A DNA stretch of 36,995 nucleotides from Candidatus Eiseniibacteriota bacterium (GTDB lineage Bacteria > Eisenbacteria > RBG-16-71-46 > JAGVPR01), in assembly GCA_020052115.1 (NCBI GenBank), contig JAGVPR010000109.1:1-36995 (forward strand), in the 5' to 3' direction. The notes beneath the pieces were generated by a model. The model did no database searches. It was not told the DNA's origin and worked only from the letters and a program-made list of their open reading frames with translations. The translations under genes and the position numbers were made by a program. Shown piece by piece: positions 2-32,564 of the stretch (position 1 is the stretch's first letter; the number at the start of each line of letters is the position of its first letter).

Positions 2-364
2 AACGGCAAGCCGACGGACTGCTACTCGTGCCATCAGCCGGAATACGCCCAGACGACGAACCCGGATCACCAGGCCGCCGGTTTCCCGACTCTCTGCACG
101 CAGTGCCACAACACGACGCAGTGGGAGGGCGCGACCTTCAATCACGATGCGCTCTACTTCCCGATCTACTCGGGGAATCACCGGGGGCGGTGGGATGAGT
201 GCGCGGACTGTCACTACAATGCCAACGATTTCGGCGATTTCTCATGCATCATCTGTCATGAGCACAGCGATCAGCAGCAGGTGGATCGTGACCACCAAGG
301 GGAGTCGGGTTACCAGTACGGCCCTCGTACATGCTACGACTGCCACCCGAGGGGATCGCATTGA
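2..364 (+). CDS. Multiheme cytochrome c, C-terminal fragment (5' truncated by window edge)
   Basis: Manual translation of frame +2, not in the ORF track: NGKPTDCYSCHQ...CTQCH...FNHDALYFPIYSGNHRGRWDECADCH...CIICHEH...CYDCHPRGSH*. Five CxxCH motifs and six additional His in 120 aa; stop TGA at 362-364. Confidence 0.95.
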   Translation, partial: NGKPTDCYSCHQPEYAQTTNPDHQAAGFPTLCTQCHNTTQWEGATFNHDALYFPIYSGNHRGRWDECADCHYNANDFGDFSCIICHEHSDQQQVDRDHQGESGYQYGPRTCYDCHPRGSH

Positions 365-1938
365 TGACAAGAATCAGGATGCTCCTGGTGCCGGCCGTGC
401 TGGCGGTTGTTCTCATCGCGTCCCTGTCCTCCGGCGGCGCCTCGGCCGCCGCCCCCACCGACAGCACGACGAGTCGCGTCCTGTACGTGACGGAAGGCGT
501 GGTCTACATAGACGCCGGTCGCGAGAAAGGACTGCGCGAGGGCGACATGATCCAGATCGTCCGGGGCGACTCCGTCGTTGCAGTCGCACATGTGACAGCA
601 CTTTCGAGCCGGGGCGCTGCCTGCGTGCGCATGCCGGGTGCCGGCCAGGTTGCGCCCGGCGACGTCGCGCGATTCGCGGAGCGGAATGAGGCTCGGCTCC
701 CAGAGTCCATAGCGCAGTCGGCACGCGGGCGAGTCCCCCGGCGAGCGTCGAATCCGCGCGGCCGTATCGGCGTCCGGATGCTGGCGATTCGCGACGGAAC
801 TGAGCCGCGCAGCGACATCTATCAACCGTCCATTGACGCCAGAATCAACGGCGCGCTATCCGACATGTTCGCGGTGGAGGTTGATCTTCGAGCCAGACAG
901 ACATACCGCCCGCAGGCCGAGGACGGGTCTCGCAACCTCACGCGCGTCCACCGGCTCGCGGTGGTGTGGCAGCGTCCCAATGCCCCCCTCAGGCTCACCG
1001 CTGGGCGGCTCTCGTCCCCTTCCCTCGCGACGGTCAGCGTGTTTGACGGAGGCCTCGCCGAATACAGGCGCAAGACGTGGAGCCTCGGTCTGTTCAGCGG
1101 AACCCAGCCAGAGCCCGAGACCTACGGATTGGACATGCACATCCGCGAACACGGGGGTTACGCCGAGCTTCGCGGGAGCCCCGGCGGCCGAGGGCGATAT
1201 GTCCTCACCGCAGGCGTCATCGGTTCGTATCAGAAGGGGCGCATCAATCGTGAATTCGGTTTCTTGCAGGCGCGGTATCTCGCACCGCGTTTCTCGGCGC
1301 ACTGGGCGCAGGAACTCGATGCGAACCGAAGCTGGAAGGCCGATGCGGGCGAACCCGCGCTGAGTCCGACAAGCACCTTCGCAAGCGCGCGCTACCGAGC
1401 TTTCGAGGCGCTCAGCTTCTCGTGCGGATACGACAACCGTCGCAACGTGCGTCTCTACCGCGATCAGGTCACGCCCGAGACGGAGTTCGATGACAGCTAC
1501 AGACAGGGGGTCTCGGGCGGCGCTGAGGTCCGGGTCTCGCGTTACAGCGCCTCGGCAGCGACGCGCTTCTCGCGCGGCGTATCTTCGGAGAAGACCGAAT
1601 CGCACACCTTTTCGGCCGAAGCCCGCTCCGTCACACGAATCGGCTTCACCATCGGCGGACGGAGCACGCGATTCGCGAGCTCCAGAGCCGAGGGGTGGCT
1701 CCACTCCGGCCACCTGGCCGTGCCGCTCGCCGGGACTCTCGGGGCCGACGTCGAGACGGGAATCCGGGACGAGCACGCTCGTCAGGCAGGACTCGATGGG
1801 TCGCGCCTCGTTTGGACCAGAGCGGATTTGACCGCAGCAATCGGACGCCGGTGGTTCGGGATCATCTCCGTGGAACGGGATGCCGGAGCGGGCGCCGATC
1901 AGATGCAGATCTACACAAGCCTGAGCTACAGGCTGTGA
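364..1938 (+). CDS. Predicted outer-membrane beta-barrel protein (putative porin partner of the cytochrome) with a small N-terminal beta domain
   Basis: ATG at 364 overlaps the cytochrome stop (TGATG). Signal peptide MTRIRMLLVPAVLAVVLIASLSSGGASA; many alternating amphipathic strands with aromatic ends; C-terminus IYTSLSYRL resembles a beta-signal; no CxxCH. Confidence 0.75.
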   Translation: MTRIRMLLVPAVLAVVLIASLSSGGASAAAPTDSTTSRVLYVTEGVVYIDAGREKGLREGDMIQIVRGDSVVAVAHVTALSSRGAACVRMPGAGQVAPGDVARFAERNEARLPESIAQSARGRVPRRASNPRGRIGVRMLAIRDGTEPRSDIYQPSIDARINGALSDMFAVEVDLRARQTYRPQAEDGSRNLTRVHRLAVVWQRPNAPLRLTAGRLSSPSLATVSVFDGGLAEYRRKTWSLGLFSGTQPEPETYGLDMHIREHGGYAELRGSPGGRGRYVLTAGVIGSYQKGRINREFGFLQARYLAPRFSAHWAQELDANRSWKADAGEPALSPTSTFASARYRAFEALSFSCGYDNRRNVRLYRDQVTPETEFDDSYRQGVSGGAEVRVSRYSASAATRFSRGVSSEKTESHTFSAEARSVTRIGFTIGGRSTRFASSRAEGWLHSGHLAVPLAGTLGADVETGIRDEHARQAGLDGSRLVWTRADLTAAIGRRWFGIISVERDAGAGADQMQIYTSLSYRL

Positions 1939-2092
1939 GCTAGCGGCCGGCCAGGCCGGCGGGGCAAGAAGTTCCGCAATCCACGCTCGCGGTGCGGGGC
2001 GCCGGTTCCTCGTGCCACCCCGACATGCCTCCCCGCCGGCGGTTCTCGCGCACCACGCAGCTCCGCATCATGATGATCCTCCGACTTTCTGC

Positions 2093-2118
2093 TGAACGCG
2101 CAGCCGCCACGCACCGTC
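2093..2118 (+). promoter_or_regulatory. Possible ECF-sigma promoter (TGAAC-N17-CGTC)
   Basis: GAAC at 2094-2097 and CGTC at 2115-2118, about 40 nt upstream of the ATG at 2159; matches the generic AAC...CGT ECF pattern. Confidence 0.3.
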
Positions 2119-2158
2119 AGAGCGACAGGAAGCCACCCCCATGGAAAGGAGATCCAAC

Positions 2159-2899
2159 ATGTTGCGGAGCCTCCGCTCGCCGGCCCACTGCATTCTCGCG
2201 ACGTGCCTTGCCTGTGCCGCGGTCCTCGTCGCGGGTCAGGTCCCGCCGGCGGCCGCCGGCGAACGGCCGACCAAGATCGAGCGCCAGATCACCGTTGCCG
2301 GGAAGATGATTGATGAGATGCTGGTGGACAGCCCGAACTTTCTCGTTTCCGGCCGAGAGCCCACCGATGGATTCGAGATCGAGGACATGGGCGCGCTGTT
2401 CGTGTTCGAAGCGTCCTTGACCGGACCCGAGTGGGACTCCGAGCACGGTTCGCACTCCTGGTTCTGGCCGTGGAAGAAGCACAATCGGGTCTTCGTGATC
2501 AACCGCGGGCACAAGAGAGAGATCCTCATGGACGGCGATCAGATCGTCATCAAGGATGGCGACGTCCACATCTCGGACGGCGGTAAGCTCCGCAAGCTCG
2601 ACGACAGCGAGTGGGACACGATGGACGAGAAGACCTATCGCGAGCGGGAGCTCGAGACATACGAGCGCGCCAAGGCGGAGTTGGTGGATGCGCTCCTGGA
2701 CTGCGGCGACATGCTGACCGCTCTGCCGCCCGGCCAGACGGTAAGGATCGAAGCACGGCTGCGGGAAATCGAGCTGCCCGGCGACCGCGAGGTGCGCCGG
2801 CTCACTGTGCGCGCGAAGAGCGACGATCTTCGCTCGTACTCTGATGGCCGGCTCTCCGAGACCGACATGCGCGCGCGCGTCGAGATCAAGGAGTCGTAG
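2159..2899 (+). CDS. Hypothetical exported protein
   Basis: Strong RBS (AAAGGAG) precedes the ATG at 2159; signal-peptide-like N-terminus ending PPAAA; GC3-biased codons; no recognised catalytic motif. Confidence 0.75.
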   Translation: MLRSLRSPAHCILATCLACAAVLVAGQVPPAAAGERPTKIERQITVAGKMIDEMLVDSPNFLVSGREPTDGFEIEDMGALFVFEASLTGPEWDSEHGSHSWFWPWKKHNRVFVINRGHKREILMDGDQIVIKDGDVHISDGGKLRKLDDSEWDTMDEKTYRERELETYERAKAELVDALLDCGDMLTALPPGQTVRIEARLREIELPGDREVRRLTVRAKSDDLRSYSDGRLSETDMRARVEIKES

Positions 2900-3026
2900 T
2901 TCCGGGCGGCCCGGGCTCTCTCGCTCGCCTTCCGCGAGGTCCGGGCCGCATCGGCCCCGCAAAGGCCTCGAAAGGAGAGAGCTAGCTCCGCTGGCGCTCT
3001 TTTCGCTGGATGACGGGCGCAACTTG

Positions 3027-3035
3027 TGGTAAAAT
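3027..3035 (+). promoter_or_regulatory. Extended -10 sigma70-type element (TGgTAAAAT) upstream of the M28 peptidase
   Basis: TG-N-TAAAAT about 55 nt upstream of the ATG at 3089, in an otherwise GC-rich region; -35 is poor. Confidence 0.5.
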
Positions 3036-3088
3036 CACTAGTTGCATGGTGCCCGGCAAGTCCGACCTTCAGCGTAGGGGGCATAGAC

Positions 3089-5581
3089 ATGAAGAACACG
3101 GTACCGCTCCTCATCCTGCTTCTGCTCGTCGTTCTCCCCGCCGTTGCGTTCACAGAGGCGCCGCAGCGGGCCCTCGTCGTCGTAGACGATCCAACGTCCG
3201 GCACGGCGGCCGCGCTTCTCGACTCGGGCATCCCTGTGGTGCGAGACATGGGGCGGTACTTGCTCGTGGCCGCCGAGGCGGCGGATCTTGGAAGGCTCGC
3301 CGGCATCTCTCCCCGCTGGCGGATCCTCGACAGCTCGATGGGGGCGAAGACCTACTACACGGTCACGCTCCGCGACGAGGCGCAAATCGCCGGGCTTCGG
3401 ACCCTCGCTCGCGTGCTGGCGGCCGATCGCTACGATGCGGTGGTCGAGGCTTCCGAGGCGGATGCTGCGGCCATCGTCGCCGCCGGCTACGATGTCGCCC
3501 GGGTGTTCATTCGGCCGGTGCGCCTGCCGCGCGACGCCAGCGAGGCGACCTCCACGGCCGCCAAGGTCGCCGACCCGATCATCCAGGGGATGGTCGGCGC
3601 GGTGAACGGCACCAATGTTGACGCCAACGTGCAGCGCCTCCAGAACTTCGTGACGCGCTACTGCACGACTGACAGCGCCCAGGCGGCCGCGAACTGGATC
3701 CAGTCGAAGTTCCTCTCGTTCGGGATCACCGACGTTCAGTTCGAGGCGATTCCCGGCGGCTACAAGCCGAACGTCGTCGCGACGATCCCGGGCACAGGGG
3801 ATCCCACGAAGATCATCGTGCTCGGCGCGCACTACGATTCGTACGCTCAGACCAACAACGCCCCCGGCGCGGACGACAACGCCTCGGGGACGTCCTGCGT
3901 CATCGAGACGGCGCGCATCCTGAGCCAGTATGAGTTCAACTACACGATCAAGTTCGTCGCATTCGGGGCCGAGGAGTTGGGTCTCTACGGCAGCGAGGCC
4001 TTCGCGGCCAACTCGGCCGCGCGCGGGGACGACATCCTCGCCGCGGTCTGCGTGGACATGATCGGCTACCTGGCCGGCGGCGACGTCCTGGACCTCGACA
4101 TCATCCGGAACACGAGTTCCCAGTGGATCCAGACGCTCGCGTTCCAGTGCGCGACCGACTACGTCCCCGGATTCGCGACCGTGAACGGCACGATCCCGGG
4201 AGGCGCGAGCAGCGATCATGCGTCGTTCTGGGCGCATGGATACGATTCGATCCTCTTCTTCGAAGACAGCGGGTCCTACAGTCCGTACATCCATACGACG
4301 AGCGACGTGGTCGGCACGAGCTACAACAGCCCGACGCTGGCGCGGAACTCGGTGAAGACGGCGGTCGGCCTCGTGGCCACCCTCGCCCAGCCGTTCGTGA
4401 TCGGCATCACGCACACGCCGCTGGCCGACACGGGGGATTCGGTCAATCCGTACCGCGTCGCCGCGACGATCACCGCGGCCGGCACGCTCAACCCCGACTC
4501 GCTCCTCGTGCGCTACGACACGGGCTCGGGGTTCCAGGCGGTTCAAATGACGCCCACCGGCACCGCGGACGAGTATGAAGCTCTCATCCCCGCCCAGGCG
4601 CCGGGGACGTTCGTGGACTACTACATCGTGGCCGAGGATACGAACGCCAACCGGAGAACCGATCCGGTGAATGCGCCGGCCACGGTGCACAGCTTCTTCG
4701 TGGGCACGCTGTCGGTCATCCTTGCCGATGATTTCGAGTCGGCGGGGAGCTGGACGGTCGGGGCGGCGGGCGACAACGCGACCACGGGTGTCTGGCAACG
4801 CGGGGATCCTCAGGGGACGACCACTGGAACCGCTCAGGTTCAGCCCGAGGATGACCACACCGGGGCGCCGGGCATCAACTGCTATGCCACGCAGCTCGCA
4901 GCCGGAACGAGCGTCGGCCAGTACGATGTTGACAACGGCAAGACGACTCTCCTCTCGCCGGTCTTCGATCTCTCCAGCTACACCGTGGCGTTCGTGTCGT
5001 ACTGGCGGTGGTACACGAACAGCCTCGGCTCCGGGGCCGGCGACGATTACTGGCAGGTCCAGGTGACGAACAACGGAACGACCTGGGTGGATCTGGAGTA
5101 CACCTTGGAGAACCGCAACTCCTGGGCGCAGTACTCCTTCCAGCTGCACCAGTACATCACGCTGACGGCGAACGTGCGCTTCCGGTTCATTGCAAGCGAC
5201 GTCAACCTCGCCTCGCTCGTCGAGGCGGCGGTGGACGATTTTTCGATCACCGGCTTCGAGCCCGTCATCTCGGTCGAGGAGGGTGGTGCGGACGCGCCGC
5301 GGCGTGTGATCTTGGCCGAGAGCCGTCCGAATCCGTTCAATCCGCGAACCGAGATCCGGTACTTCGTTCCCGCCCCGGGACAGAAGGTCACGCTGCGGAT
5401 CTACGATGTCTCCGGGCGCAAGGTGCGCTCACTCCTCCAGGGCGAGCGGGTTTCGGGCTGGAGCGCGACGGCCTGGAACGGCAACGACGAGGGCGGCGCT
5501 CCAGCGGCGTCGGGCGTGTATTTCTGCAGGCTCGAGGCGGGGAACAAGGTTCTCTCGAGGAGGCTCGTCCTTATCCGGTGA
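3089..5581 (+). CDS. Secreted M28-family metallopeptidase with Ig-like and jelly-roll accessory domains and a C-terminal FlgD-Ig/T9SS-like domain
   Basis: Signal peptide MKNTVPLLILLLLVVLPAVA; M28 zinc motifs GAHYDS, GADDNASG, AEELG, DMIG, SDH, YIHT; C-terminal PNPFNPRTEIRY...IYDVSGRKVRSL...WNG...SGVYFCRL. Confidence 0.92.
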   Translation: MKNTVPLLILLLLVVLPAVAFTEAPQRALVVVDDPTSGTAAALLDSGIPVVRDMGRYLLVAAEAADLGRLAGISPRWRILDSSMGAKTYYTVTLRDEAQIAGLRTLARVLAADRYDAVVEASEADAAAIVAAGYDVARVFIRPVRLPRDASEATSTAAKVADPIIQGMVGAVNGTNVDANVQRLQNFVTRYCTTDSAQAAANWIQSKFLSFGITDVQFEAIPGGYKPNVVATIPGTGDPTKIIVLGAHYDSYAQTNNAPGADDNASGTSCVIETARILSQYEFNYTIKFVAFGAEELGLYGSEAFAANSAARGDDILAAVCVDMIGYLAGGDVLDLDIIRNTSSQWIQTLAFQCATDYVPGFATVNGTIPGGASSDHASFWAHGYDSILFFEDSGSYSPYIHTTSDVVGTSYNSPTLARNSVKTAVGLVATLAQPFVIGITHTPLADTGDSVNPYRVAATITAAGTLNPDSLLVRYDTGSGFQAVQMTPTGTADEYEALIPAQAPGTFVDYYIVAEDTNANRRTDPVNAPATVHSFFVGTLSVILADDFESAGSWTVGAAGDNATTGVWQRGDPQGTTTGTAQVQPEDDHTGAPGINCYATQLAAGTSVGQYDVDNGKTTLLSPVFDLSSYTVAFVSYWRWYTNSLGSGAGDDYWQVQVTNNGTTWVDLEYTLENRNSWAQYSFQLHQYITLTANVRFRFIASDVNLASLVEAAVDDFSITGFEPVISVEEGGADAPRRVILAESRPNPFNPRTEIRYFVPAPGQKVTLRIYDVSGRKVRSLLQGERVSGWSATAWNGNDEGGAPAASGVYFCRLEAGNKVLSRRLVLIR

Positions 5582-5645: not shown

Positions 5646-5833
5646 TTGGTGCGCTTGCGGCGGCCGCCGGGCAGTATCCAACGCGCCATTGCAGGATGCA
5701 CGGCGCCGGGGTTCGCTCCAACCACAAAGGCGCAGATGAAGAAAGCGCCGCGGACTTCCGAAAGTCAAAGTTGAGTCACTCCTCGGGCCCCGCGGGATTC
5801 ACACCGCCGTCCGACATCGGTGCGGAGGTCCAG

Positions 5834-7525
5834 ATGCCCAACAGTAGTGATGCGAAGAAGATACTCATCGTGGATGACAGCGCCACCTCCATCGAGGCCA
5901 TGCGCGTCCTCCTGACCGGCGCGGGCCATGAGGTCGCGACGGGAAGGGACGGCATTGAGGGAATCACCTGCGCCTATCGGGATCATCCTGATCTCATCGT
6001 ATCCGACATCGTGATGCCGGAGCTCGACGGCTACCAGATGTGCCGGCTCCTGAAGTCGGATCCGTTGACGGGACACCTGCCGGTCATTCTCCTCACCGGT
6101 CTCAACGACCAACTCGATCGGTTCTGGGCCTCACAGGCGGGGGCTGATCTGTTCGTCGGGAAGAACGTGGCGCAGACGGAACTCCTCCCCGCGATCTCTA
6201 GGCTGCTTGCGACGGCAGCGCCGCGACCGCCATTCCTGACGTCTGGCGAACTACGCACGAAGCCGGACATGTCCGGCAGCGGCATTAAGTCCCGCGTCGC
6301 GCATCTTCTCGATAGACTTCTCTTCGACTCCACGGTCGTGAGCGGCCTGCGGCGCATCGGTCATCATTCGCAGGACCCTGCGACGCTGGCGGCGGAAGTG
6401 CTCGCCTTCCTCACCGCGCTTCTCGACTTCCGTCTGGCCGTTCTTACGCTCCCGTTGTTCCGTGGCGATGTGGACTATGTGATGGCCCGAGAGCCGGGCG
6501 CCGAGAACGATGTTGACGTGCTCGTTCAGGGAAGTCCGCGTTCAGAGACGGTGCGCCGGGAGATCGTCGCGTCGGGCGGGTTGGCGGGGAGCGAGGGACG
6601 AGGATCTCAGAAGGCGCGCCGTGGGCTCCACATCTGCCAGATCCCGCTCGAAGCTCGTGGCGAACCGTGCGGCGCGCTCTCTCTGATGCTGCGCGGCCAA
6701 CCGAAGGTGCACACGCAACTCGTCCTCGATCTCGTTCGGGAGGAGTTGTCGCTCGTAGCGGATTATCTTGTCCGCATGAATCGTCTCGAGGGTCTCCGCT
6801 CTGATTTCCAGGCGATGGTCGTCCACGATCTGCGCTCGCCGCTGTCGGGACTGCTCGAATCAGCAGAACTCCTGCTCAGCGAGGCAGCGGGACCCTTGAC
6901 CGAGGAGCAGCGGATGTTTCTGGATCTCAATCGCGACTCATCCCGCTCGATGCTGGGCCTCGTGAACGATCTCCTCGACCTGAGCAAGATCGAGGCTGGT
7001 CGCATGGAGCTTCGGCTCGATGATGTCGAACTGCTCGATCTCGCGGCCGAAGTGCTTCCTCTCTACCGTCTGCAGGCTGAGAAAGCCGGCTTGACCCTGC
7101 TCGATGAGCCATCAGCGCGGCCGGCGCTCTTCCGCGCGGACAAGGAGAAGCTCAAGCAACTGATGGGAAACTTGCTCTCGAATGCGATCAAGTTCACGCC
7201 CGTCGGCGGAACGGTTCGGTTCGGCTGGCGCGTGGAATCCGACACGGATGAATCCACGATGGAATTCTATGTGGCCGACACGGGAAGCGGAATCGCTGCG
7301 GACCAGATTCCGCTGCTGTTCGAGAAGTATCGGCAGACCGACACGGGGCGCCAGACCAAGGCCAAGGGCACGGGCCTGGGGCTCGCGATCTGCCGCAGCA
7401 TCGTGGAGGCGCATGAATGGACGATTGACGTCAAGAGCGAGGTTGGTCAGGGGACGATGTTCTCGATCCGGGTTCCTCTGCCGGTTCCTTCGCAGTCGGC
7501 CGGAGCTCTACCGCTCGCAGCCTGA
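5834..7525 (+). CDS. Hybrid sensor histidine kinase (N-terminal receiver, linker/GAF-like region, HisKA, HATPase)
   Basis: RBS GGAGG before the ATG at 5834; REC motifs LIVDD and SDIVMPELDG; H-box VHDLRSPL; N-box NLLSNAIKFT; G-boxes DTGSGI and GTGLGL. Confidence 0.92.
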   Translation: MPNSSDAKKILIVDDSATSIEAMRVLLTGAGHEVATGRDGIEGITCAYRDHPDLIVSDIVMPELDGYQMCRLLKSDPLTGHLPVILLTGLNDQLDRFWASQAGADLFVGKNVAQTELLPAISRLLATAAPRPPFLTSGELRTKPDMSGSGIKSRVAHLLDRLLFDSTVVSGLRRIGHHSQDPATLAAEVLAFLTALLDFRLAVLTLPLFRGDVDYVMAREPGAENDVDVLVQGSPRSETVRREIVASGGLAGSEGRGSQKARRGLHICQIPLEARGEPCGALSLMLRGQPKVHTQLVLDLVREELSLVADYLVRMNRLEGLRSDFQAMVVHDLRSPLSGLLESAELLLSEAAGPLTEEQRMFLDLNRDSSRSMLGLVNDLLDLSKIEAGRMELRLDDVELLDLAAEVLPLYRLQAEKAGLTLLDEPSARPALFRADKEKLKQLMGNLLSNAIKFTPVGGTVRFGWRVESDTDESTMEFYVADTGSGIAADQIPLLFEKYRQTDTGRQTKAKGTGLGLAICRSIVEAHEWTIDVKSEVGQGTMFSIRVPLPVPSQSAGALPLAA

Positions 7526-7568
7526 GCGGCGCGGGTTGCGCGGGGTTTCCGCAAGCAGGGGCAAGCGC

Positions 7569-7874
7569 TCAGCGTTCGCCGGACAGCTCCTGGGCGAGCC
7601 CGCCGGCGGTCCAGAACGCAGTGATGGATCGGGGCGCGCCGCAGAAGAGAACCCGACCCCCGCGGCGTTGCGTCGCCCGCCTGAGCGCCAGCAAGATCTG
7701 TGTGGCGGAGGTGTCTATCGCCGTCGCCGCGTGCAGATGGATGCTGACCTCGTTGCCACCGCTCTTCGCGGCCTCTCTCGCGGCGTCGTGCAGCGACGCT
7801 GAGTCGAAGATGTCAACAGTGCCGGAGAGCAGCAGAACGCAGCCGGCATCCGATGTCATGTACTCAGCTGGCAT
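7569..7874 (-). CDS. STAS-domain protein (chemotaxis-operon associated)
   Basis: 101 aa; LSGTVDI and AIDTSATQILL resemble STAS_2; RBS AGGAGG; last gene of the che operon. Confidence 0.8.
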   Translation of the reverse strand: MPAEYMTSDAGCVLLLSGTVDIFDSASLHDAAREAAKSGGNEVSIHLHAATAIDTSATQILLALRRATQRRGGRVLFCGAPRSITAFWTAGGLAQELSGER

Positions 7875-7908
7875 GATTTCCGGCCTCCTTTGACCGGCCG
7901 CAACCCGC

Positions 7909-9018
7909 TCACCGGGCGCGACCGCGAATAGACGATTTGATCACGCGACCCGGTGCTCGTGGAGGTTCCTCGGCCGCCATGGCTAGGGCCGCCGGCGCGA
8001 GATCTTCGAGCGGCAGCGTTCGCTCCGCGGCCCCGAGGTCAACGGCCGCCTTCGGCATTCCGTAGACGACGCAGCTCGACTCGTCCTGCGCAAGAGTCCG
8101 GCCGCCTGCCTCGCGGATGGCCAGGAGTCCCTCAGCCCCATCTCTGCCCATGCCGGTCATGAGGATGCCTGTCGTGTCTCGAGCGGCCTCGGCGGCGCAG
8201 GAGTGAAACAGCGCATCAACAGACGGTCTGTGCCGGTTGACGGCAGGGCCGTCGTCCAGCCGGACGACGAGCGCGTTGCCCGATCTCGTCAGCCTCATGT
8301 GGCGCCCGCCCGGAGCCAGGAGAACGCTGCCGGTGAGAACCGCGGCCCCGTCTTCGGCCTCGCGCACGCGCACGGTGCAGAGGCCGTCGAGGCGGTCGGC
8401 GAACGCGCGCGTGAAGGTCTCCGGCATGTGCTGCACGGCAACCACCCCGGGGCAGCCGGGAGGGAGCGCCTGCAGGAACGCCCGAATCGCCTGAGGTCCG
8501 CCCGTCGAGGCGCCGAGCGCGATCACGCGTTGCGCAAGGGCCGGTTCCGTCCTCTCGCGCCGCTCGAGCGACGGACTCTCGACCGCCGGCCTCGTCCGGT
8601 GAACGCGGGCGTGGGCCGCTGCCATCACCTTCTCGACCAGGTCCGAGGCGAGCCCGGCTCCCGAGTCGCCCGCCCCGAGACGTGGTTTTGTGACGAAGTC
8701 CACCGCTCCCAATTCGAGCGCGCGAAGTGTGACGGCGCAGCCGGCGGCCGTGTAGGTCGAGACCATCACGACCGGCATCGGCCGGGCCCGCATGAGCTTC
8801 TCCAGGAACGACAGGCCGTCCATCCGCGGCATCACGACGTCGAGGGTCAGGACGTCGGGCCGGAGTCGCCCAATCGCTTCCCACGCGGCGTAGGGATCGG
8901 AGGCGACGCCGACGACATCAATGCGCGAATCTCGACCGAGCAGGCCGCAGATGACGTGGCGGGCGACGGCCGAGTCGTCCACGACAAGCACTCGGACCTT
9001 TTCGCTCGGCGGGGTCAT
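7909..9018 (-). CDS. cheB: Chemotaxis response regulator protein-glutamate methylesterase
   Basis: REC domain (VLVVDDS, TLDVVMPRMDG) plus esterase triad GASTGG, VQHMP, TGMGRDG; ATG at 9018 overlaps the cheD stop (TGATG). Confidence 0.97.
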   Translation of the reverse strand: MTPPSEKVRVLVVDDSAVARHVICGLLGRDSRIDVVGVASDPYAAWEAIGRLRPDVLTLDVVMPRMDGLSFLEKLMRARPMPVVMVSTYTAAGCAVTLRALELGAVDFVTKPRLGAGDSGAGLASDLVEKVMAAAHARVHRTRPAVESPSLERRERTEPALAQRVIALGASTGGPQAIRAFLQALPPGCPGVVAVQHMPETFTRAFADRLDGLCTVRVREAEDGAAVLTGSVLLAPGGRHMRLTRSGNALVVRLDDGPAVNRHRPSVDALFHSCAAEAARDTTGILMTGMGRDGAEGLLAIREAGGRTLAQDESSCVVYGMPKAAVDLGAAERTLPLEDLAPAALAMAAEEPPRAPGRVIKSSIRGRAR

Positions 9019-9602
9019 CAGAAGAGCGTGACGTCCCCGAACGAGACGCTTTTCTGATTCCACTGGCGCTCCCGGTGGAGCAGCCGCGCGCGTGTCGTGA
9101 GCCCTACGATCCGGCGCACCCTCGCCCTGCCGCTCGTGGCGTGAAAGCGGACCTCCCGCGGGCTGTACCCGCCGACGTCCTCGCTCAGAACGGGCATCCC
9201 TTCATCGCAGAGGAATTGGCGGGCGAAGTCCACATTCCTCCTCGGGACCGCGAACGCATCGGGGTTGACGCCCACGACGTGACCGCCTCCGAAGACCTTC
9301 GCGACGAGCCGGCTCCGTTCGGCGCCGAGCTTCATGAGCGCTCCGATCAGCTGGTCCATCGCGTGCACACCGTAACGCGTTGCGGTGTCTCCGGGCTGTT
9401 GCGACGCGCCTTCGGGAAGCAGAAAGTGATTCATCCCTCCGATGCATCGCTTGGGGTCGAAGAGGCACACCGCCACGCACGACCCGAGCAGCGTCCTCAC
9501 GACGACGGGATTCGAGGATGCGTAGACCCCTCCGATGAAGAGCACGATCTCGGGGACCTCGGACCGGGGCGCGGCCCGTGTTTCTTCGGGGAGCGCGCTC
9601 AT
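9018..9602 (-). CDS. cheD: Chemoreceptor glutamine deamidase
   Basis: TLLGSCVAVC, GGMNHFLLP, AKVFGG and EDVGG motifs. Confidence 0.96.
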   Translation of the reverse strand: MSALPEETRAAPRSEVPEIVLFIGGVYASSNPVVVRTLLGSCVAVCLFDPKRCIGGMNHFLLPEGASQQPGDTATRYGVHAMDQLIGALMKLGAERSRLVAKVFGGGHVVGVNPDAFAVPRRNVDFARQFLCDEGMPVLSEDVGGYSPREVRFHATSGRARVRRIVGLTTRARLLHRERQWNQKSVSFGDVTLF

Positions 9603-9976
9603 GCGGCGTCCTTTCTCAGTACTCGGCGTACGACCTCACGCAGCGTGCCTGCCTCGAACGGCTTGACGATCCAGCCAGTGGCTCCGGCGTCACGGCCCTT
9701 CTGTTTCATGTCCGAGCCGCTTTCGGTGGTCAGCACCAGGATCGGCACGAAGCGGTTCTGCTGAGACTGTCGAATCGCGCGGACAAGACTGAGACCGTCC
9801 ATCCTCGGCATGTTGACGTCGGTGATGACCAGGTCGGCAGCGTTCGATTCGAGAACGGTGAGCGCGTCCTGTCCGTCACACGCCTCGAGGACCAGGTGCG
9901 AGTCCTGTTCGAGCGCCTCGCGCACCATCCGGCGCACCGTTCTTGAATCATCGGCGATCACCACTGTGGATGCCAT
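9599..9976 (-). CDS. cheY: Single-domain response regulator CheY
   Basis: 125-aa REC-only protein: ADDS, TDVNMPRMDG, LTTES, WIVKPF; lies within the che operon. Confidence 0.93.
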   Translation of the reverse strand: MASTVVIADDSRTVRRMVREALEQDSHLVLEACDGQDALTVLESNAADLVITDVNMPRMDGLSLVRAIRQSQQNRFVPILVLTTESGSDMKQKGRDAGATGWIVKPFEAGTLREVVRRVLRKDAA

Positions 9977-9999
9977 CGAGTCTCCTCCTGATTGGTCCG

Positions 10000-10914
10000 T
10001 CAGCCCGGCGGGCTCGGCGCCGCGGCATAGATTGCGTCCCCGAGCGAACGGAGCCCGTTCAGGCGTCCGTGGGCGTGCTCCGCGTGCCCGAGGAAGATGA
10101 GACCGCCATCATTGAGTGTCGTGACGAATCTCCGCGTCACTTCCCGCTGAACGCCTCCGTCGAGGTAGATCAGCACGTTCCGGCAGAAGACGGCGTCGAG
10201 CCGGCTCGCGATCGGCCAGTCGTCGAGGAGGTTGATCCGCGTGAACGTGACGAGACGGCGAACCTCCGGTCTTATGAGGAGCAGGCCGCTCTTCGAGCCG
10301 ATGCCTCGAAGGAAGTAGCGCCTGAGAAGGTTGCCCGGCACGCCGGACGCTTGCTCGGCTGTGTACACTCCGGTCGCGGCGCGTTCCAGTACTCCTCTGT
10401 TGATGTCCGAGCCGAGGATTTTCACGTCCCACGACCCGGCGGACGCGCCGAGGGCCTCCAGAACAACGAGCGCGATCGTGAAAGGTTCCTCGCCCGAACT
10501 GCATCCGGCGCTCCAGATCCGCAAGCGCCGCTCCCCGGTCTCGGCCGCAAGGGCTATCCGGCGGGGGAGCCAATCGCGGGCCATGTATTCGAACTGCTCC
10601 GGCGACCGGAAGAACTCCGTCTTCGTGGTTGTGATCGAGTCAATGAGGCGGGCGATCTCCTCGCCACTCCGGTCCCGTTGCGTCAACAGATCGTGGTAGG
10701 CGCGGTACGACCCGAGTCCGAGGCTCTGAAGCCTCTTCCTGAGGCGCACCTTCAAGAGTTCGCGCTTCGCCGGCTTGAGTTCGATGCCGGTCCTGGCGCA
10801 AACGAGATCTCGGAGCAGGGTGAACTCCTCGTGACCCAGGTGGATCTCGTTCTGGGCCGGAAGCGGGGCCGCGCTTTCAAGTGCCGGCCACGCCGCACGC
10901 TTCGCCGTTATCAC
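10000..10914 (-). CDS. cheR: Chemotaxis protein-glutamate O-methyltransferase
   Basis: TTTKTEFFR, IWSAGCSSGEEPFT, GSDIN, FCRNVLIY, LGHAE. Probable GTG start at 10914 overlapping the cheW stop (GTGA), with GGAGAGG upstream. Confidence 0.95.
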   Translation of the reverse strand: MITAKRAAWPALESAAPLPAQNEIHLGHEEFTLLRDLVCARTGIELKPAKRELLKVRLRKRLQSLGLGSYRAYHDLLTQRDRSGEEIARLIDSITTTKTEFFRSPEQFEYMARDWLPRRIALAAETGERRLRIWSAGCSSGEEPFTIALVVLEALGASAGSWDVKILGSDINRGVLERAATGVYTAEQASGVPGNLLRRYFLRGIGSKSGLLLIRPEVRRLVTFTRINLLDDWPIASRLDAVFCRNVLIYLDGGVQREVTRRFVTTLNDGGLIFLGHAEHAHGRLNGLRSLGDAIYAAAPSPPG

Positions 10915-11399
10915 GCTGCCTCTCCGGCGGCGGTCACTTCCTCGGAGAGGATTCTCTCGACGTCGAGGATGAGACACAGCTTATCGGCCGTGTGTACAAC
11001 GCCGCGAATGAACGGCACGGAGTTGCTGCCGAGGTCCGGCGGAGGCTGAAGCTCCGAGTCCGTGAACGTCAGCACGTCCGAGACCGAGTCCACGGCCAGC
11101 CCGACGGCGGCTGTCTGCGGGCGGACGACGATCGTCACGGCGAGCGGAGCTTCCCCGACCGCCGAGCCGCCGAGCCTGAGGCCCAGATCGAGCACCGGGA
11201 TCACGGCTCCGCGAAGGTTCATCACGCCTTTGACGTAGGCCGGCGTGTTCGGGACGGCGGTGATCGGAGCCTGGCCGCGAATCTCCTGGACCGACAGGAT
11301 GTCGAGCCCGTACTCCGCGTCTCCGAGCCTGAACGTCAGGACCTGAGTGCCCCGGCGTTCCTCGCGCGCGTCGCTTCGTTGATCAAGCTGTCGGGTCAT
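10911..11399 (-). CDS. cheW: Chemotaxis coupling protein CheW
   Basis: LTFRLGDAEYGLDILSVQEI, VPNTPAYVKGVMNLRG, GLAVDSVSDV. Confidence 0.97.
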   Translation of the reverse strand: MTRQLDQRSDAREERRGTQVLTFRLGDAEYGLDILSVQEIRGQAPITAVPNTPAYVKGVMNLRGAVIPVLDLGLRLGGSAVGEAPLAVTIVVRPQTAAVGLAVDSVSDVLTFTDSELQPPPDLGSNSVPFIRGVVHTADKLCLILDVERILSEEVTAAGEAA

Positions 11400-11408
11400 G
11401 CCGCCCTC

Positions 11409-13148
11409 CTAGAATTCGACGAATCCATCGGCTTCATCCGATTGCGGCATGGTCCCGCCTGTTGCCGAACGGCGCAGTCCGGTTCTCGGCCTCGCGGCGG
11501 ACGGTGGGGAGATCGGAAACACGGCGGCCTGAAGGCGCCTGGGACGCTCGAATCCCCGGCTCGGAGGCGCGGTCGTGGAGACACGGGCCGCATCGCCGTC
11601 GTCCAGCTTGAACCGGCGGACGAGCGTCAGGAGTTCCTCGGCCTGCGACGAGAGCGCCTCGGAAGTCGAGCTCAGCTCCTCCGATTGAGCCGCGTTCGAC
11701 TGGAGCACCTGGTCCATCTGCGCCACGGTGATATTGAGCTGCTCGATGCCCGCAGACTGCTGCTGCGCCGCGGTCGCGATGCCGGACATGATCTCCGTCA
11801 CCTGCTTCACCGAGGTGATGATCTCGGCGAGAGTCCGGCCCGATTCGTTGACCAGATCGGACCCTGCGTCAACCTTGGCCACCGAGTCGCGGATGAGACC
11901 CTTGATCTCCTTGGCAGCCGTCGCGCTCCTCTGCGCCAGATTGCGGACCTCTGTCGCGACGACCGCGAACCCGCGGCCCTGTTCGCCGGCGCGGGCCGCC
12001 TCGACAGCCGCGTTCAGCGCCAAGAGATTGGTCTGGAATGCGATCTCGTCGATCGTCGTGATGATCTCCGCGATCTTCTTCGACGCCTCGTTGATCTCCG
12101 ACATCGAGCCGACCGCCGCGGCGACCACGCCGCCGCCCTTCTCGGCAACCGTGCGGGAGTCCATGGCAAGCCGGTTCGCTTCTCGCGCATTCTCCGCGCT
12201 CTGCTTGACCGCGCTCGTGATCTGCTGCAGGGCGGCGGCCGTCTCTTCCAGAGAGGCGGATTGCTCCTGGGCTCCGCTCGAAAGCTGCTGCGCCGAAGCG
12301 GTCAACTGCTGCGCCGCCGCGGCTCCGTGCCCGGCGGCGGCGCGAACGTCGCCGAGTGTCGTCCGCATCGCGTTCAGTGAGCGATCCAGCGATCCCGCCA
12401 TCTCCCCGATCTCATCGGAGGAGGCGTAATCCAGCCGGGAGGTGAGGTCGCCGGCCCCGACGGATTCGAGCACTCGCGACGCCCTCGAGAGAGGGCCGGA
12501 AATGCTGCGCGCGATTCCCAATCCGAAGGCGACGGCGACTGCCACAGTCAGCACCATGAGAGCCAACGCGAGGCGGCGCGCGTACCCGTACTCCGATCGT
12601 CCGTGTTCGGCCCGTTCGTCGGCCGACTGGATCTGCATCGCGAGCAGTTGGTCCGGCGGACCGCTCGTCTCCTCGAATGCCGACTTGACGGTTCCAAGCG
12701 ACGCGGCCCAGGCCAGCTCTTCCTGGCCCTTGCTGCTCGGGGAAAGCGCCTGGGAATCGCGTGCCTGCTTGTAGCGCTCCCAGGAACGGTCGAACGATTC
12801 GAGCAGCCTGCGCTCTTCGGGGGACAGGCTGGCGCCTTCGATCGCCGTCATTGCGCCTTCGATCGAGACGTCCAGCCTGGCGATTTCCGTCTCGCATTCC
12901 CGCTTGATTTGGGGATCCGCCGCCAGCACGTGCTCGACCTCCAGGGCACGGGCGAGGTGCGTGTCCTCCTGGATGGTCGCCAGCTTCTCCAGGAGCAGGA
13001 CATCATGACCGGTCGTCAGCTCCAGGTTCTCCTGAATGCCTCCCATGAGGACCAGTGTGACGATCCCGAGCGCAACCGTGAGGGTCGCTGCGAGGCCGTT
13101 GGCGATCATCAGCTTCGTAAAGGTCCTTCTGTTTCGAAACCAGCTCAT
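11409..13148 (-). CDS. Methyl-accepting chemotaxis protein (TM - four-helix sensor - TM - HAMP - signalling domain) with C-terminal pentapeptide GFVEF
   Basis: Two TM helices; HAMP (GDLT...SDEIGEM); hairpin tip [30 protein letters not shown]; flexible tail ending GFVEF. Confidence 0.97.
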
Positions 13149-15211
13149 GTTCGACCCTCCGTTCCTGTCGCGCTCTCTGCCGAAAAGGCGGCTGCCGCCG
13201 CGGGGATTGCGGCCGCTCGTGCGCGGCCGCGAAGCTGCCGGTCGCCGGAATCCCCCCGCGATCTCCGGGCGAGCGCCAGCAGACCCGCGACGTCCAGGAT
13301 CATCGCGACGCGACCATCTCCCAGAATCGTCGCGCCCGAAATCCCGTCGCTGCGTGTGAAGTGGGTGTTGAGACTCTTGATGACAACCTGCTGCTGAGAG
13401 GAGAGTTCATCCACGAGGACGGCCGCTGAGAAGCCGTCCTGGGTGACGACCACCGCGATCTTCTCCGTGGCGTCGGCTCGATCGGTGTCGTGACCGAGGA
13501 GATCGGCGAGTCGCACCAGGGGAAGCGCTTTGCCGCGAACCAGGATGGCCTCGGCTCCTCGCGGCATCTGCGAGATGGAGCCTGCGCCCGGACGCACGGA
13601 CTCGGCGATGGCGGTCAGCGGGAGAACGTATGTCCGGCCGGCCGCCTTGAGGCACTGGCCCTCGATGATGGCCAGCGTGAGCGGAAGCGACACGAGGAAT
13701 CGGGTGCCTTGCCCGCATTGGCTCTCCACGGCGATCCGACCGCCGGCGCTTTCGAGCTTCTTGCGCACGACGTCCATGCCGACGCCGCGTCCCGAGATCT
13801 GCGTCACCTTCTCCGCCGTCGAGAGCCCGGGGTGGAAGATGAGGTCGCGGATCTCCTCGTCCGAGGGGGTCTCTCCGGGCGCGGTCACTCCGAGATCCGC
13901 CGCCTTCGCGAGAATCGCGTCCAGGTCCAGCCCGCGGCCGTCGTCGGAAACCTCGATGAGCAATTGGCCCGCCGACTGCCTGGCCGCGATGCGAACGACG
14001 CCGGCGGGGTTCTTGCCCGCGGCCTGACGGGTCGCGGGGTCTTCGATGCCGTGATCAATGGCGTTGCGTACAAGGTGGTTGAGCGGATCCGCGAGGAGAT
14101 CCATCACCGCCTTGTCAATCTCCGTATCCTCCCCGTCGGTCTCCAGACGGATCTGCTTGCTCTGCTCGGCGGCCACGTCGCGCACGAGCCGGGGAAAGCG
14201 GCCGAGCAGCGAGCGCAGAGGGACCGTGCGCACCGCCATCATCCGCTCGTGCAGCTCTCGCGCTTGCCGGTCCATGCGGGCCACGGACTCCTCAAGAGAG
14301 GGGAGATCCTCCGGAGCGAAATGGCCGACCGTTCGGACGATCATTGATTGCGTGATCACCAGCTCGCCGACGAGGTCAATGAGCCGATCCACCTTGTCGG
14401 TGCCCACGCGGAGGCTCGAACCTTCGACGGACGGCGGTGCGCTTCCTCGCGCCCGGGTCTCGCGGTCCATGGTCTCCGGACCATCATCGGATGCTGCTCG
14501 TATCGAAATCGCTGCGGGATCGCCCACGAATTCGAAACGCTCTGCAATCGCCTCGACTGTCGCGTTCGTTTCGAGCCGGATGTCCCATCCCAGGTAGCAT
14601 TCCTCGGGCGACATCTGTTCGAGTTCCGGAAGGTCGCTCATGTCGGGGGACACCCGGACCAGCGTGCCGATCCGTTCGAGCTGCATGATGAGGTGGATCG
14701 GATCGAGCCCTCGGCGCAGCAAGTCGCGCGGGGGCCGGAATCGGATGTCGTAGGTCGTCTTCGGCTCGGAAGGGGGGGCGAGGGACGTGGTCGTCCGCGG
14801 CGGTTCGATTTCGGTGTCGCAGCCCGCGGCGACGTCCCGCAACGCGGCCTGCAGGGATTCGCGGACGTGCTCGTCCTCGGCGGAACACGATTCGTTCCGG
14901 CGCGACTCCTCCAGCATCCGCCGCAGAGTATCCGTGGACGTCAGCAGGAGCTCGACGACTCGCGGCGTTGACTGAACGTTCTCCGAGCGAAGTCCATTGA
15001 GCAATTCTTCCACGGCGTGCGCGAAGTGGGCCATTTGGTCGAGCCCCACCATTGCGCTGCTCCCCTTGAGGGAATGCGCGCAGCGGAAGATCGCATGGAT
15101 GGTGTCGGAATCCGCGGCCCCGGATTCCAGGCGCAGAACGCCCGATTCCAATTCCGCGAGCAACTCCGATGCTTCCTCGAGGAAGATTTCTCTCAGGGAT
15201 TCTTGGGTCAT
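13145..15211 (-). CDS. cheA: Chemotaxis histidine kinase CheA
   Basis: Hpt [12 protein letters not shown]; P3 [13 protein letters not shown]; P4 [28 protein letters not shown]; C-terminal CheW-like P5. Confidence 0.98.
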
Positions 15212-32024: not shown

Positions 32025-32547
32025 GGCTCGTCGCCTCCTCATGGCGTTCGGACACCGCGGCCTCCAAGTGGTCGATCTCGCGGTCCCACTCGCGGAGGCG
32101 CCCGGGCAGGGCCAACGGCCCGAGCCTCACGACATCCTCGACCAGGCTGTTGACGACGGTCTTCACGCGCTCCCCCTCGGAGGCGGAGATCCACTCGAGT
32201 CGGAAGCGTTCCTTCTCGATGCCCATCTGTCCCAGCATGCGCTGCAGCAAGTGAAACCGGCGAAGGCAGTTGTAGTTGCCTTCCATGTAGTGGCAATCGC
32301 CCGGGTGGCACCCGCCGATGAGAACGGCGTCGGCGCCGCGGGCGAATGCGTCCATGACGAACTGGGGATCCACGCGCCCCGAGCACATCACCCGGATGAT
32401 GCGGAAGTGGGGCGAGTGCTTGAGCCTCGACACGCCCGCGAGGTCAGCGGCCGTGTACGTGCACCAGTTGCAGAAGAACGCGACGACGCGGGGCTTCCAC
32501 TCGGCCCTTGGGGCCGCCCCTTCGCGCGCCGCGACGTGGGCAGACAT
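32014..32547 (-). CDS. mvhD: [2Fe-2S] hydrogenase delta subunit
   Basis: FFCNWCTYTAAD, RVMCSGRVDP, GGCHPGDCHY, WISASEG; RBS GGAGGG before the ATG at 32547. Confidence 0.95.
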   Translation of the reverse strand: MSAHVAAREGAAPRAEWKPRVVAFFCNWCTYTAADLAGVSRLKHSPHFRIIRVMCSGRVDPQFVMDAFARGADAVLIGGCHPGDCHYMEGNYNCLRRFHLLQRMLGQMGIEKERFRLEWISASEGERVKTVVNSLVEDVVRLGPLALPGRLREWDREIDHLEAAVSERHEEATSHAR

Positions 32548-32564
32548 GATCCCTCCGTACCCGC

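Follow-up and report, generated by a model that had tools for sequence, protein, structure and literature searches.

A multiheme cytochrome gene and an overlapping gene for a predicted outer-membrane barrel in Candidatus Eiseniibacteriota, probably part of a PCC3-type electron conduit

The cytochrome tail and the barrel gene

The first 1,938 bases of contig JAGVPR010000109.1 (assembly GCA_020052115.1, Candidatus Eiseniibacteriota bacterium) carry two unannotated genes, the end of a gene for a multiheme c-type cytochrome and, directly behind it, a gene for a predicted outer-membrane β-barrel protein. The two had been proposed to belong to an undescribed system for extracellular electron transfer. 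The window, which is the whole stretch of DNA that was analyzed (36,995 nucleotides), is the complete contig, designated C235, of a genome bin of 3.26 Mb in 411 contigs with 66.7% G+C and an estimated completeness of about 86%. Genes were called as stop-to-stop open reading frames (ORFs) with support from motifs or hidden Markov models (HMMs); greedy calling of the longest ORF is unreliable at 67% G+C.

The cytochrome gene (positions 2 to 364, plus strand) is represented by its 3′ end. Frame 2 has no stop codon between the first bases of the contig and a TGA at positions 362 to 364, and it specifies the last 120 amino acids of the protein. The frame had been described as absent from the ORF track, and it is a real gene that is missing there because it is truncated at the contig end. 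The five CxxCH motifs (residues 7, 32, 67, 82, and 111) and six further histidines (residues 23, 48, 60, 88, 98, and 120) that the original prediction reported in these 120 residues were counted exactly. The motifs are not a chance occurrence because a six-frame scan of the 3.26-Mb genome found only 27 stop-to-stop ORFs of at least 60 amino acids with at least three CxxCH motifs, and because the tail is 49 to 61% identical to the C termini of 53 cytochromes that adjoin homologous barrels. Pfam matches to the tail were weak (Cytochrome_C7, 23.2 bits with a cutoff of 24.8; Paired_CXXCH_1, 22.6 bits with a cutoff of 20.6). All five heme motifs are conserved over the 54 tail sequences, and four of the six additional histidines (H23, H48, H60, and H98) are invariant, which fits the bis-His heme ligation that had been suggested. 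The tail is a conserved pentaheme C-terminal module, with histidines 23, 48, 60, 88, and 98 as candidate distal ligands. The repeating FP pattern that had been noted is real, but the consensus of the 54 sequences resolves it into two distinct conserved motifs, AGFPT and FPIYSG.

The two genes overlap as had been described. In the sequence TGATG (positions 362 to 366, plus strand), the cytochrome stop codon at 362 to 364 and the barrel start codon at 364 to 366 have base 364 in common, which suggests that translation of the two genes is coupled. A Shine-Dalgarno-like GAGGGGA lies within the cytochrome coding sequence at positions 349 to 355 of the plus strand, 8 nucleotides before the ATG at 364, and could serve as the ribosome-binding site of the barrel gene.

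The barrel gene (positions 364 to 1938, plus strand) extends from the ATG at 364 to the TGA at 1936 to 1938 and specifies a 524-amino-acid protein of an unnamed family, predicted to lie in the outer membrane, in which a signal peptide is followed by a small β domain and then by a barrel of 22 strands. Alternative in-frame ATGs are present at 331 and 379, and the database copy of the protein (P0001; 519 amino acids) would fit the ATG at 379. By eye, residues 1 to 28 (positions 364 to 447, plus strand; MTRIRMLLVPAVLAVVLIASLSSGGASA) are a probable Sec signal peptide with cleavage after ASA. The structure was modeled with AlphaFold2 (AF2) from an alignment of 68 sequences (A1), and the model places a helix at residues 3 to 19 of the signal region. 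Residues 34 to 105 (positions 463 to 678, plus strand) form a small domain with six strands, which is probably periplasmic. It is followed by a linker, residues 106 to 131 (positions 679 to 756, plus strand), that was modeled with low confidence (predicted local distance difference test [pLDDT] scores of 31 to 53). DSSP assignment of the model gave 22 antiparallel strands in residues 132 to 523 (positions 757 to 1932, plus strand), which would form the transmembrane barrel and are joined by loops of just 2 to 22 residues. The C-terminal YTSLSYRL (positions 1912 to 1935, plus strand) is the last strand. The family consensus over the 68 sequences terminates in LSYRF, with R523 invariant and F524 present in at least 90% of the sequences. 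An aromatic C-terminal residue marks outer-membrane barrels.

The original description of this protein as barrel-like was borne out. The AF2 model had a mean pLDDT of 85 and a predicted template modeling score of 0.69. Foldseek returned 368 matches at an E value of ≤0.001, and those listed were all outer-membrane barrels, with template modeling (TM) scores of 0.23 to 0.47. The best among the matches listed were the PapC/FimD usher pores (E value of 3e-8; TM scores of 0.37 to 0.41). A structure search independent of Foldseek ranked 22-strand SusC/TonB-dependent barrels first (Z scores of 17 to 20.5), gave ushers a Z score of about 17, and aligned 334 residues with MtrB from the structure of the Mtr complex (6r2q_B; Z score of 15.7, root mean square deviation of 5.2). 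On the strength of the model, the product of positions 364 to 1938 is confidently predicted to be an outer-membrane barrel.

The barrel protein has no significant match to a Pfam or NCBIfam family; the only Pfam hit was a weak match of residues 47 to 70 to FlgT_C (E value of 0.01). A word-indexed search found 224 relatives at an E value of ≤0.001 among 8,000 candidates scored. The 119 relatives listed besides the protein of the window itself were 34 to 48% identical to it, with E values down to 1e-119, and every named one among these matches was called hypothetical. An exhaustive profile search recovered 3,135 clusters (50% identity) at an E value of ≤0.001, 891 of them at ≤1e-30. The 30 nearest clusters in the ESM Atlas were all designated hypothetical protein and had no Pfam family. 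A search did not reveal any relatives in which the barrel is longer or fused, a negative that is weak evidence. P0017, P0066, P0082, P0246, and other family members have 650 to 770 amino acids, and they are extended at the N terminus by a region with an AMIN (PF11741) or FlgT_C (PF16538) annotation. These annotations suggest that part of the family carries a periplasmic or peptidoglycan-binding addition.

Three known barrel types were considered for the protein and rejected. The HMMs of the MtrB/PioB porins (PF11854 and TIGR03509) had no match at an E value of ≤1, and hhalign comparison of the 68-member barrel profile with the PF11854 porin of the same genome gave a probability of 0.6%. That porin (C264, positions 1558 to 3588, minus strand), used as the positive control, matched PF11854 at 1.1e-69. 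The earlier remark that the barrel was not recognizable as MtrB/PioB thus stands. A TonB-dependent transporter of the SusC type was rejected in the absence of a Plug or TonB_dep_Rec match at an E value of ≤1, and the structural likeness to these transporters is restricted to the barrel (model residues of about 128 to 524). The plugs of TonB-dependent proteins have about 150 residues; the N-terminal domain of the barrel protein has about 70. An usher was rejected because there was no family match. The control porin (L107) is a canonical MtrB/PioB porin, and its gene is immediately preceded, on its own strand, by a 10-heme ORF. At least two kinds of porin-cytochrome system are thus present in the organism.

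Conserved neighbors of the barrel family

Whether homologs of the barrel lie beside multiheme cytochrome genes had been set in advance as a test of the original prediction. The barrel was searched for in 40 other genomes of the same class. Twelve genomes were positive, and in all 12 loci, each of which was extended, an ORF with 10 to 61 CxxCH motifs is located directly upstream of the barrel on the same strand. A wider survey with one genome per species yielded 80 barrel loci in bins assigned to Gemmatimonadota (the most), Candidatus Eisenbacteria, Krumholzibacteriia, Acidobacteriota/Polarisedimenticolia, and Binatia. Eight of these loci had less than 200 bp of upstream sequence and could not be judged, which left 72 that were testable. 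An ORF with at least three CxxCH motifs that ended no more than 900 bp from the barrel start was considered adjacent, and such a multiheme cytochrome gene was directly upstream of the barrel in 70 of the 72 loci. In 59 of 68 loci, no more than 60 nucleotides separated the cytochrome stop from the estimated barrel start. As a control, the downstream flank was examined for up to 10 kb where the contig allows, and it contained a heme ORF (at least three CxxCH motifs) in just 2 of the 80 loci. The outcome that would have refuted the prediction, a family whose members are mostly found apart from cytochrome genes, was clearly not what the survey showed.

These results bear on the possibility that the barrel serves as an ordinary porin for solutes or has some unrelated role in the outer membrane, and that the cytochromes serve as an electron store or as a reductase of a soluble substrate. 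The barrel has no sequence family or functional motif, OccK, MOMP, and AlgE were among its Foldseek matches, and 2 of the 72 loci have a barrel but no cytochrome. However, adjacency in 70 of 72 loci over several phyla, together with start-stop coupling, is far tighter than for a housekeeping porin. Furthermore, 22 strands with loops of 2 to 22 residues and no constriction loop or full-size plug would leave a very wide hole if the barrel were unfilled. We therefore regard a solute porin as very improbable.

Conserved neighbors were identified by tblastn searches with the ORFs of three reference loci against the 80 loci. Two further conserved genes, for a flavoprotein and a membrane protein, were found upstream of the barrel. 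Downstream of the barrel nothing was conserved, with no ORF recurring in more than 11 of the 80 loci. In the window the barrel gene is directly followed by a gene (positions 2141 to 2899, plus strand) for a 252-amino-acid protein with a signal peptide and no family, which is not kept beside barrel homologs. The usual gene order is a five-helix membrane protein, an iron-sulfur flavoprotein, a 20- or 23-heme cytochrome, the cytochrome of 6 to 61 hemes, and the barrel. The flavoprotein and the membrane protein were counted in the 41 loci with at least 9.8 kb of upstream sequence. The membrane protein was present in 38 of these, and both proteins were present in 36. Among the 36 loci, 23 are collinear (membrane protein, flavoprotein, two cytochromes, and barrel), 11 have a divergently transcribed flavoprotein gene, and 2 have the flavoprotein gene downstream. 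The maintenance of the association through rearrangement argues for a functional link of the flavoprotein and the membrane protein with the cluster.

Most of the cytochromes directly adjacent to the barrel have a heme count that can be written as 3n + 1. This is the case for 46 of the 59 that are complete (10 to 61 CxxCH motifs), compared with one-third expected by chance. An additional ORF, truncated by a contig end, has 64 CxxCH motifs. The other 13 complete cytochromes break the rule, with counts of 6 and 8 among them. Two of the 13 carry one additional CxnCH-type motif, and seven (8, 17, 20, or 26 hemes) are from loci with a His- and Cys-rich alternative C terminus. In these seven loci, a Gemmatimonadales subgroup (L078, L086, L092, L093, L100, L102, and L106), the usual …CYSCHPRG end is replaced by …CSTHHHP..C…C. 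The next cytochrome further upstream was complete in 44 cases and had 23 hemes in 32 of them and 20 hemes in 10. The cytochromes of the cluster have about 24 to 31 residues per heme.

In the window genome, the counterparts of these upstream genes are on contig C96. It carries, in order, a 5′-truncated flavoprotein gene, a 20-heme cytochrome gene, and the gene for a 16-heme cytochrome, which is cut by the 3′ end of the contig. The 16-heme cytochrome contains three-heme units of 73 residues, with hemes at 225/241/266, 298/314/339, and 371/387/412. Pfam Cytochrome_C7 (PF14522) matched both C96 cytochromes at 78 to 83 bits (cutoff of 24.8), in five stretches each; the match to TIGR04257 (nanowire_3heme), at 32.8 bits, was under its cutoff of 40. 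The last 48 residues of the 16-heme cytochrome are 77% identical to the first 48 residues encoded in the window, and we read them as carrying the signature of the terminal module rather than that of the internal repeat. C96 is probably the missing upstream part of the window operon, of which the two unannotated window genes would be the last two. With the ends overlapped, the cytochrome shared by C96 and C235 would probably have 19 hemes. Further multiheme ORFs of this genome encode 33 hemes (C267), 19 hemes (C288), and at least 17 hemes (C22, after a paralog of the membrane protein). A 12-heme ORF on C156 (L026), the last 119 residues of which are 41% identical to the window tail, has no barrel downstream.

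The size of the cytochromes raises the alternative that the barrel is an usher-like or two-partner-like pore that threads a rod-shaped cytochrome to the cell surface and anchors it there, rather than a fixed sheath around a cytochrome facing the periplasm. At about 1 nm per heme, the cytochromes with 61 hemes (complete) and 64 hemes (truncated) would be too long for the periplasm if extended, and the cytochrome has no lipoprotein signal. Ushers were the best Foldseek matches listed and scored well in the independent search, and, as in ushers, a probably periplasmic domain precedes the barrel. However, the usher matches were no better than those to other large barrels, the 22-strand transporters scored higher, and no usher, POTRA, or TpsB domain was found with Pfam or NCBIfam. 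We also know of no precedent for passage of a folded, heme-loaded protein through a 22-strand barrel. An export pore is thus distinctly unlikely.

The flavoprotein has a double zinc ribbon (DZR), a Fer4 domain with two [4Fe-4S] motifs, and a Pyr_redox_3 domain (E values of 1e-41 to 6e-43). It is closest to the YpdA and thioredoxin-reductase models, with scores under their cutoffs. A hydrophobic N-terminal segment was seen in the protein of L021. The flavoprotein of the window genome, on C96, is 65% identical to that of L033.

The membrane protein has about 300 to 330 amino acids (typically about 325) and no Pfam family. Over 41 sequences, residues W121, H125, S161, G162, G165, W294, H298, and H312 (numbering of P0122) are invariant, and H139 is present in at least 90%. 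The AF2 model (pLDDT of 76) has five transmembrane helices (residues 39 to 58, 84 to 101, 118 to 141, 147 to 170, and about 290 to 324), and helices 4 and 5 are separated by a long helical insert. The motif WX3HX13H is on helices 3 and 5, and SGxxG is on helix 4. SGxxG and the double WX3HX13H were also found in a second alignment (A2).

Relation to PCC3 and to other known systems

The cluster has the same parts as PCC3, a porin-cytochrome system predicted in silico in 2017 for Alpha-, Beta-, and Gammaproteobacteria (PMC5566968). According to the passages of PMC5566968 and PMC10734462 considered here, PCC3 comprises a porin, two cytochromes, and an inner-membrane protein. The extracellular cytochrome is variable and rich in repeats, with a median of 34 and up to 85 hemes, and the periplasmic cytochrome has a median of 21 hemes (PMC5566968). 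In Gallionellaceae, the periplasmic cytochrome has 21, 24, or 27 hemes and the extracellular one has 10 to 35 (PMC10734462). The inner-membrane protein of about 300 amino acids has five helices, of which helix 4 carries SGxxG and helices 3 and 5 each carry WX3HX13H; this protein was proposed to bind two b hemes (PMC5566968).

Four likenesses connect the barrel cluster with these passages. The same four parts occur in the same neighbor order (porin, variable cytochrome, cytochrome of about 21 hemes, and inner-membrane protein), and 38 of the 41 loci with enough upstream sequence hold all four. The inner-membrane protein agrees in size, in its five helices, and in SGxxG and the two WX3HX13H motifs on helices 3 and 5, as tested on the proteins of relatives. 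The residue-to-heme ratio is low in both, 22 to 39 in PCC3 (median of 26; PMC5566968) and about 24 to 31 in the cluster. The periplasmic cytochrome varies in steps of three hemes in both, with 21, 24, or 27 in Gallionellaceae and 20 or 23 in the cluster. In the window genome the PCC3 layout is partly assembled, with the barrel and the cytochrome tail on C235 and two cytochromes on C96.

There are also differences. The PCC3 systems described in those passages are from Proteobacteria, whereas the cluster is found in Eisenbacteria, Gemmatimonadota, Krumholzibacteriia, Acidobacteriota, and Binatia. The flavoprotein with zinc ribbon, two [4Fe-4S] motifs, and FAD domain that accompanies 36 of the 41 loci is not mentioned for PCC3 in the passages of PMC5566968, where an iron-sulfur gene is described only for PCC4 subgroup II. 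The assignment to the PCC3 kind is made by gene content, order, heme numbers, and motifs, and not by sequence homology of the porin or the cytochromes. The cluster is therefore best filed as a lineage-specific variant of the predicted PCC3 kind and not as a wholly undescribed system. What sets it apart is the lineage, the flavoprotein, and an apparently smaller barrel. Among the papers that our literature searches listed, none described the cluster in Gemmatimonadota or Eisenbacteria. For peat Acidobacteriota and Verrucomicrobiota, a 2026 preprint describes, in the part considered, porin-cytochrome architectures with 8 to 13 hemes that are different from this one.

The MtrCAB, MtoAB, and PioAB systems of Shewanella, Sideroxydans, and Rhodopseudomonas (6R2Q) likewise have the barrel gene directly after a multiheme cytochrome gene, the barrel model aligns to MtrB as noted above, and the idea of a heme chain insulated within a barrel is the same. 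In contrast to the decaheme cytochromes of the MtrA/MtoA/PioA type, the neighbor of the barrel is a cytochrome of triheme repeats, mostly with 3n + 1 hemes. The match to TIGR03508 scored 22.7 bits, compared with a cutoff of 192. The porin-cytochrome systems (Pcc) of Geobacter (OmbB-OmaB-OmcB) have an outer lipoprotein cytochrome of 12 hemes and a periplasmic cytochrome of 8 hemes, whereas the C96 cytochromes have no lipobox and the heme numbers of the cluster are 20 or 23 and 3n + 1.

The tandem three-heme units, with a PF14522 match above the cutoff, resemble the c7 polymers of Geobacter (GSU1996 type; TIGR04257 and PF14522). Unlike those, the cluster cytochromes score under the cutoff of TIGR04257, have 73-amino-acid units and conserved ends that are not part of the repeat, and are in an operon with an outer-membrane barrel. 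They also carry up to 61 hemes when the ORF is complete, and 64 in a truncated ORF, compared with 12 to 27 in the triheme-polymer cytochromes of Geobacter.

The flavoprotein and the membrane protein can be compared with NADPH oxidases and ferric reductases (FRD, PF01794; cytochrome b561, PF01292). Two HX13H histidine pairs are present on two helices, a spacing that PMC5566968 noted for the FRD domain and the cytochrome b subunit, and a cytoplasmic protein of the FAD/NAD(P)H type is paired with the membrane protein. In the cluster, however, these are separate genes, the Pfam matches are insignificant (E values of 0.019 and 2.4), the flavoprotein has the thioredoxin-reductase/YpdA fold rather than that of ferredoxin-NADP reductase, and no specific structural match was found for the membrane protein. 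The resemblance to a split NADPH-oxidase-like entry, if it holds, would mean a feed from NAD(P)H rather than from quinol and would favor an outward flow of electrons.

The rest of the window has genes of several other kinds. The minus-strand genes at positions 29524 to 35463 encode large (PF00374) and small (Oxidored_q6) [NiFe]-hydrogenase subunits beside HdrA-like Fer4/FAD and CCG-domain (HdrB-like) proteins, and they look like a cytoplasmic hydrogenase-heterodisulfide reductase set of the Mvh/Hdr type. A 2,635-amino-acid ORF (positions 18589 to 26493, plus strand) has one fn3 domain and a C-terminal FlgD_ig domain, and an M28 peptidase (positions 3026 to 5581) with the same kind of tail matches the sorting-domain model of type A of the type 9 secretion system (T9SS). 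Both are probably secreted surface proteins. Positions 5696 to 15211 hold a hybrid histidine kinase/response regulator and then, on the minus strand, CheB, CheD, CheR, a methyl-accepting chemotaxis protein, and a CheA-CheW fusion.

A possible route for electrons and its direction

From the evidence above we consider it likely that an operon of the PCC3 type, for an electron conduit through the cell envelope, has its distal end at bases 2 to 1938. A barrel of 22 strands with short loops and a tethered domain of about 70 residues most likely has a lumen occupied by another protein, in the way that MtrA occupies MtrB. This partner would be the coupled upstream cytochrome, a Sec-exported protein with 73-residue three-heme (c7-like) repeats between conserved ends, with probably 19 hemes in the window genome and about 6 to 61 in relatives. 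It would sit inside the barrel lumen. Co-folding of barrel residues 30 to 524 (68 alignment rows) with the cytochrome tail (54 rows) and four hemes gave ipSAE scores of 0.02 and 0.08, compared with a mark of 0.32, and is evidence neither for nor against such an arrangement.

The analysis shows the genes with their conserved order and coupling, the barrel and five-helix folds as predictions, and the heme and histidine motifs. We infer the place of the cytochrome in the barrel, which cytochrome is exposed at the surface, the binding of b hemes, the electron donor, and the direction of flow. In the proposed route, the membrane-tethered flavoprotein on the cytoplasmic side would feed the membrane protein, probably with electrons from NAD(P)H. 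The five-helix protein, with two histidine pairs that probably bind two b-type hemes, would carry the electrons over the inner membrane, the 20- or 23-heme cytochrome of constant size would bridge the periplasm, and the variable cytochrome would reach outward. Outward flow, to minerals, humics, or partner cells, is favored. MtrA spans about 100 Å with ten hemes (quoted in PMC5566968). By rough extrapolation from MtrA at about 1 nm per heme, the wire would be about 15 to 20 nm long with 19 hemes and about 60 nm long with 61 to 64.

Several observations weigh against this interpretation. The signal peptides of the two C96 cytochromes lack a lipobox cysteine, so that nothing points to an anchor at the surface like that of MtrC or OmcB, and the N-terminal, middle, and C-terminal parts of the adjacent cytochrome are equally conserved (median identities of 51 to 55%), which gives no hint as to which end meets the barrel. 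The join between C96 and C235 is unproven, since the overlapping ends differ at about one-fifth of their bases; the difference may reflect a strain variant or a paralog. The cluster's own membrane protein was not assembled in the window genome and was not found beside the C96 and C235 genes. The sole homolog in that genome, on C22, is 32 to 35% identical and precedes another cytochrome with at least 17 hemes, and the C22 genes are a second, paralogous cluster. Weak Pfam matches of the membrane protein were limited to cytochrome b561 (E value of 0.019, in two of four proteins) and Ferric_reduct (E value of 2.4), and its fold search returned generic helical matches, the best (Z score of 10.2) to ABC-transporter helices, in a range that is uninformative for helical models.

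With respect to the barrel itself, L059 had no heme ORF in the 10 kb upstream of the barrel, and L073, which had no adjacent cytochrome, seems to have a rearrangement in the part of the barrel gene that encodes the N terminus. The small N-terminal domain could be the plug of a gated channel with another use. The AF2 model has 22 strands, whereas the MtrB barrel has 26. The 524-amino-acid protein with its extra N-terminal domain also differs from the PCC3 porins, for which a different predictor gave up to 42 transmembrane regions (PMC5566968). In the passages considered, PCC3 is known from in silico prediction alone (PMC5566968 and PMC10734462), and the same is true of the barrel family.

The same conduit might also operate inward and supply the cell with electrons, with Fe(II), reduced minerals, or a partner cell as the source, a direction that has been proposed for PCC3 in neutrophilic iron oxidizers. 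PCC3 was drawn as leading from an extracellular donor to the quinone pool (PMC5566968) and has been discussed as a candidate for iron oxidation in Gallionellaceae, and a chain of hemes can in principle conduct either way, a point raised for Mto and Mtr (PMC10734462). However, the conserved partner in the cluster is a predicted cytoplasmic flavoprotein with the fold of an NAD(P)H-disulfide reductase and a ferredoxin domain. By standard potentials, reduction of NAD(P)+ via two b hemes with electrons from donors at the level of Fe(II) would be steeply uphill. Inward flow is therefore unlikely.

A more specific form of the outward-flowing conduit can be proposed tentatively, as possible rather than probable. 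The flavoprotein, the two-heme five-helix protein, the 20- or 23-heme cytochrome, and a wire made of a single polypeptide that passes through the 22-strand barrel might constitute a cable from NAD(P)H to the cell surface that is independent of quinones. The length of the wire would evolve by gain and loss of three-heme modules, from about 6 to 61 hemes or roughly 10 to 60 nm.

The barrel proteins make up a large family that has no name in Pfam, NCBIfam, or the ESM Atlas. The phyla that carry it are common in soil and sediment and do not belong to the classic electroactive organisms. If the cluster forms a working conduit, extracellular electron transfer would be much more widespread than is reported by surveys with Mtr, Omc, and Pcc markers. 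If the conduit is fed by NAD(P)H rather than quinol, modeling of its energetics would change. The three-heme steps provide a natural series in which wire length could be related to function. If the cable proposal is true, a large fraction of the Gemmatimonadota, Eisenbacteria, and Acidobacteriota in soil would possess a nanowire made of a single molecule, of a build unlike that of Mtr, Omc filaments, or pili, with which they might dump reducing power on minerals and humics or wire themselves to other cells.

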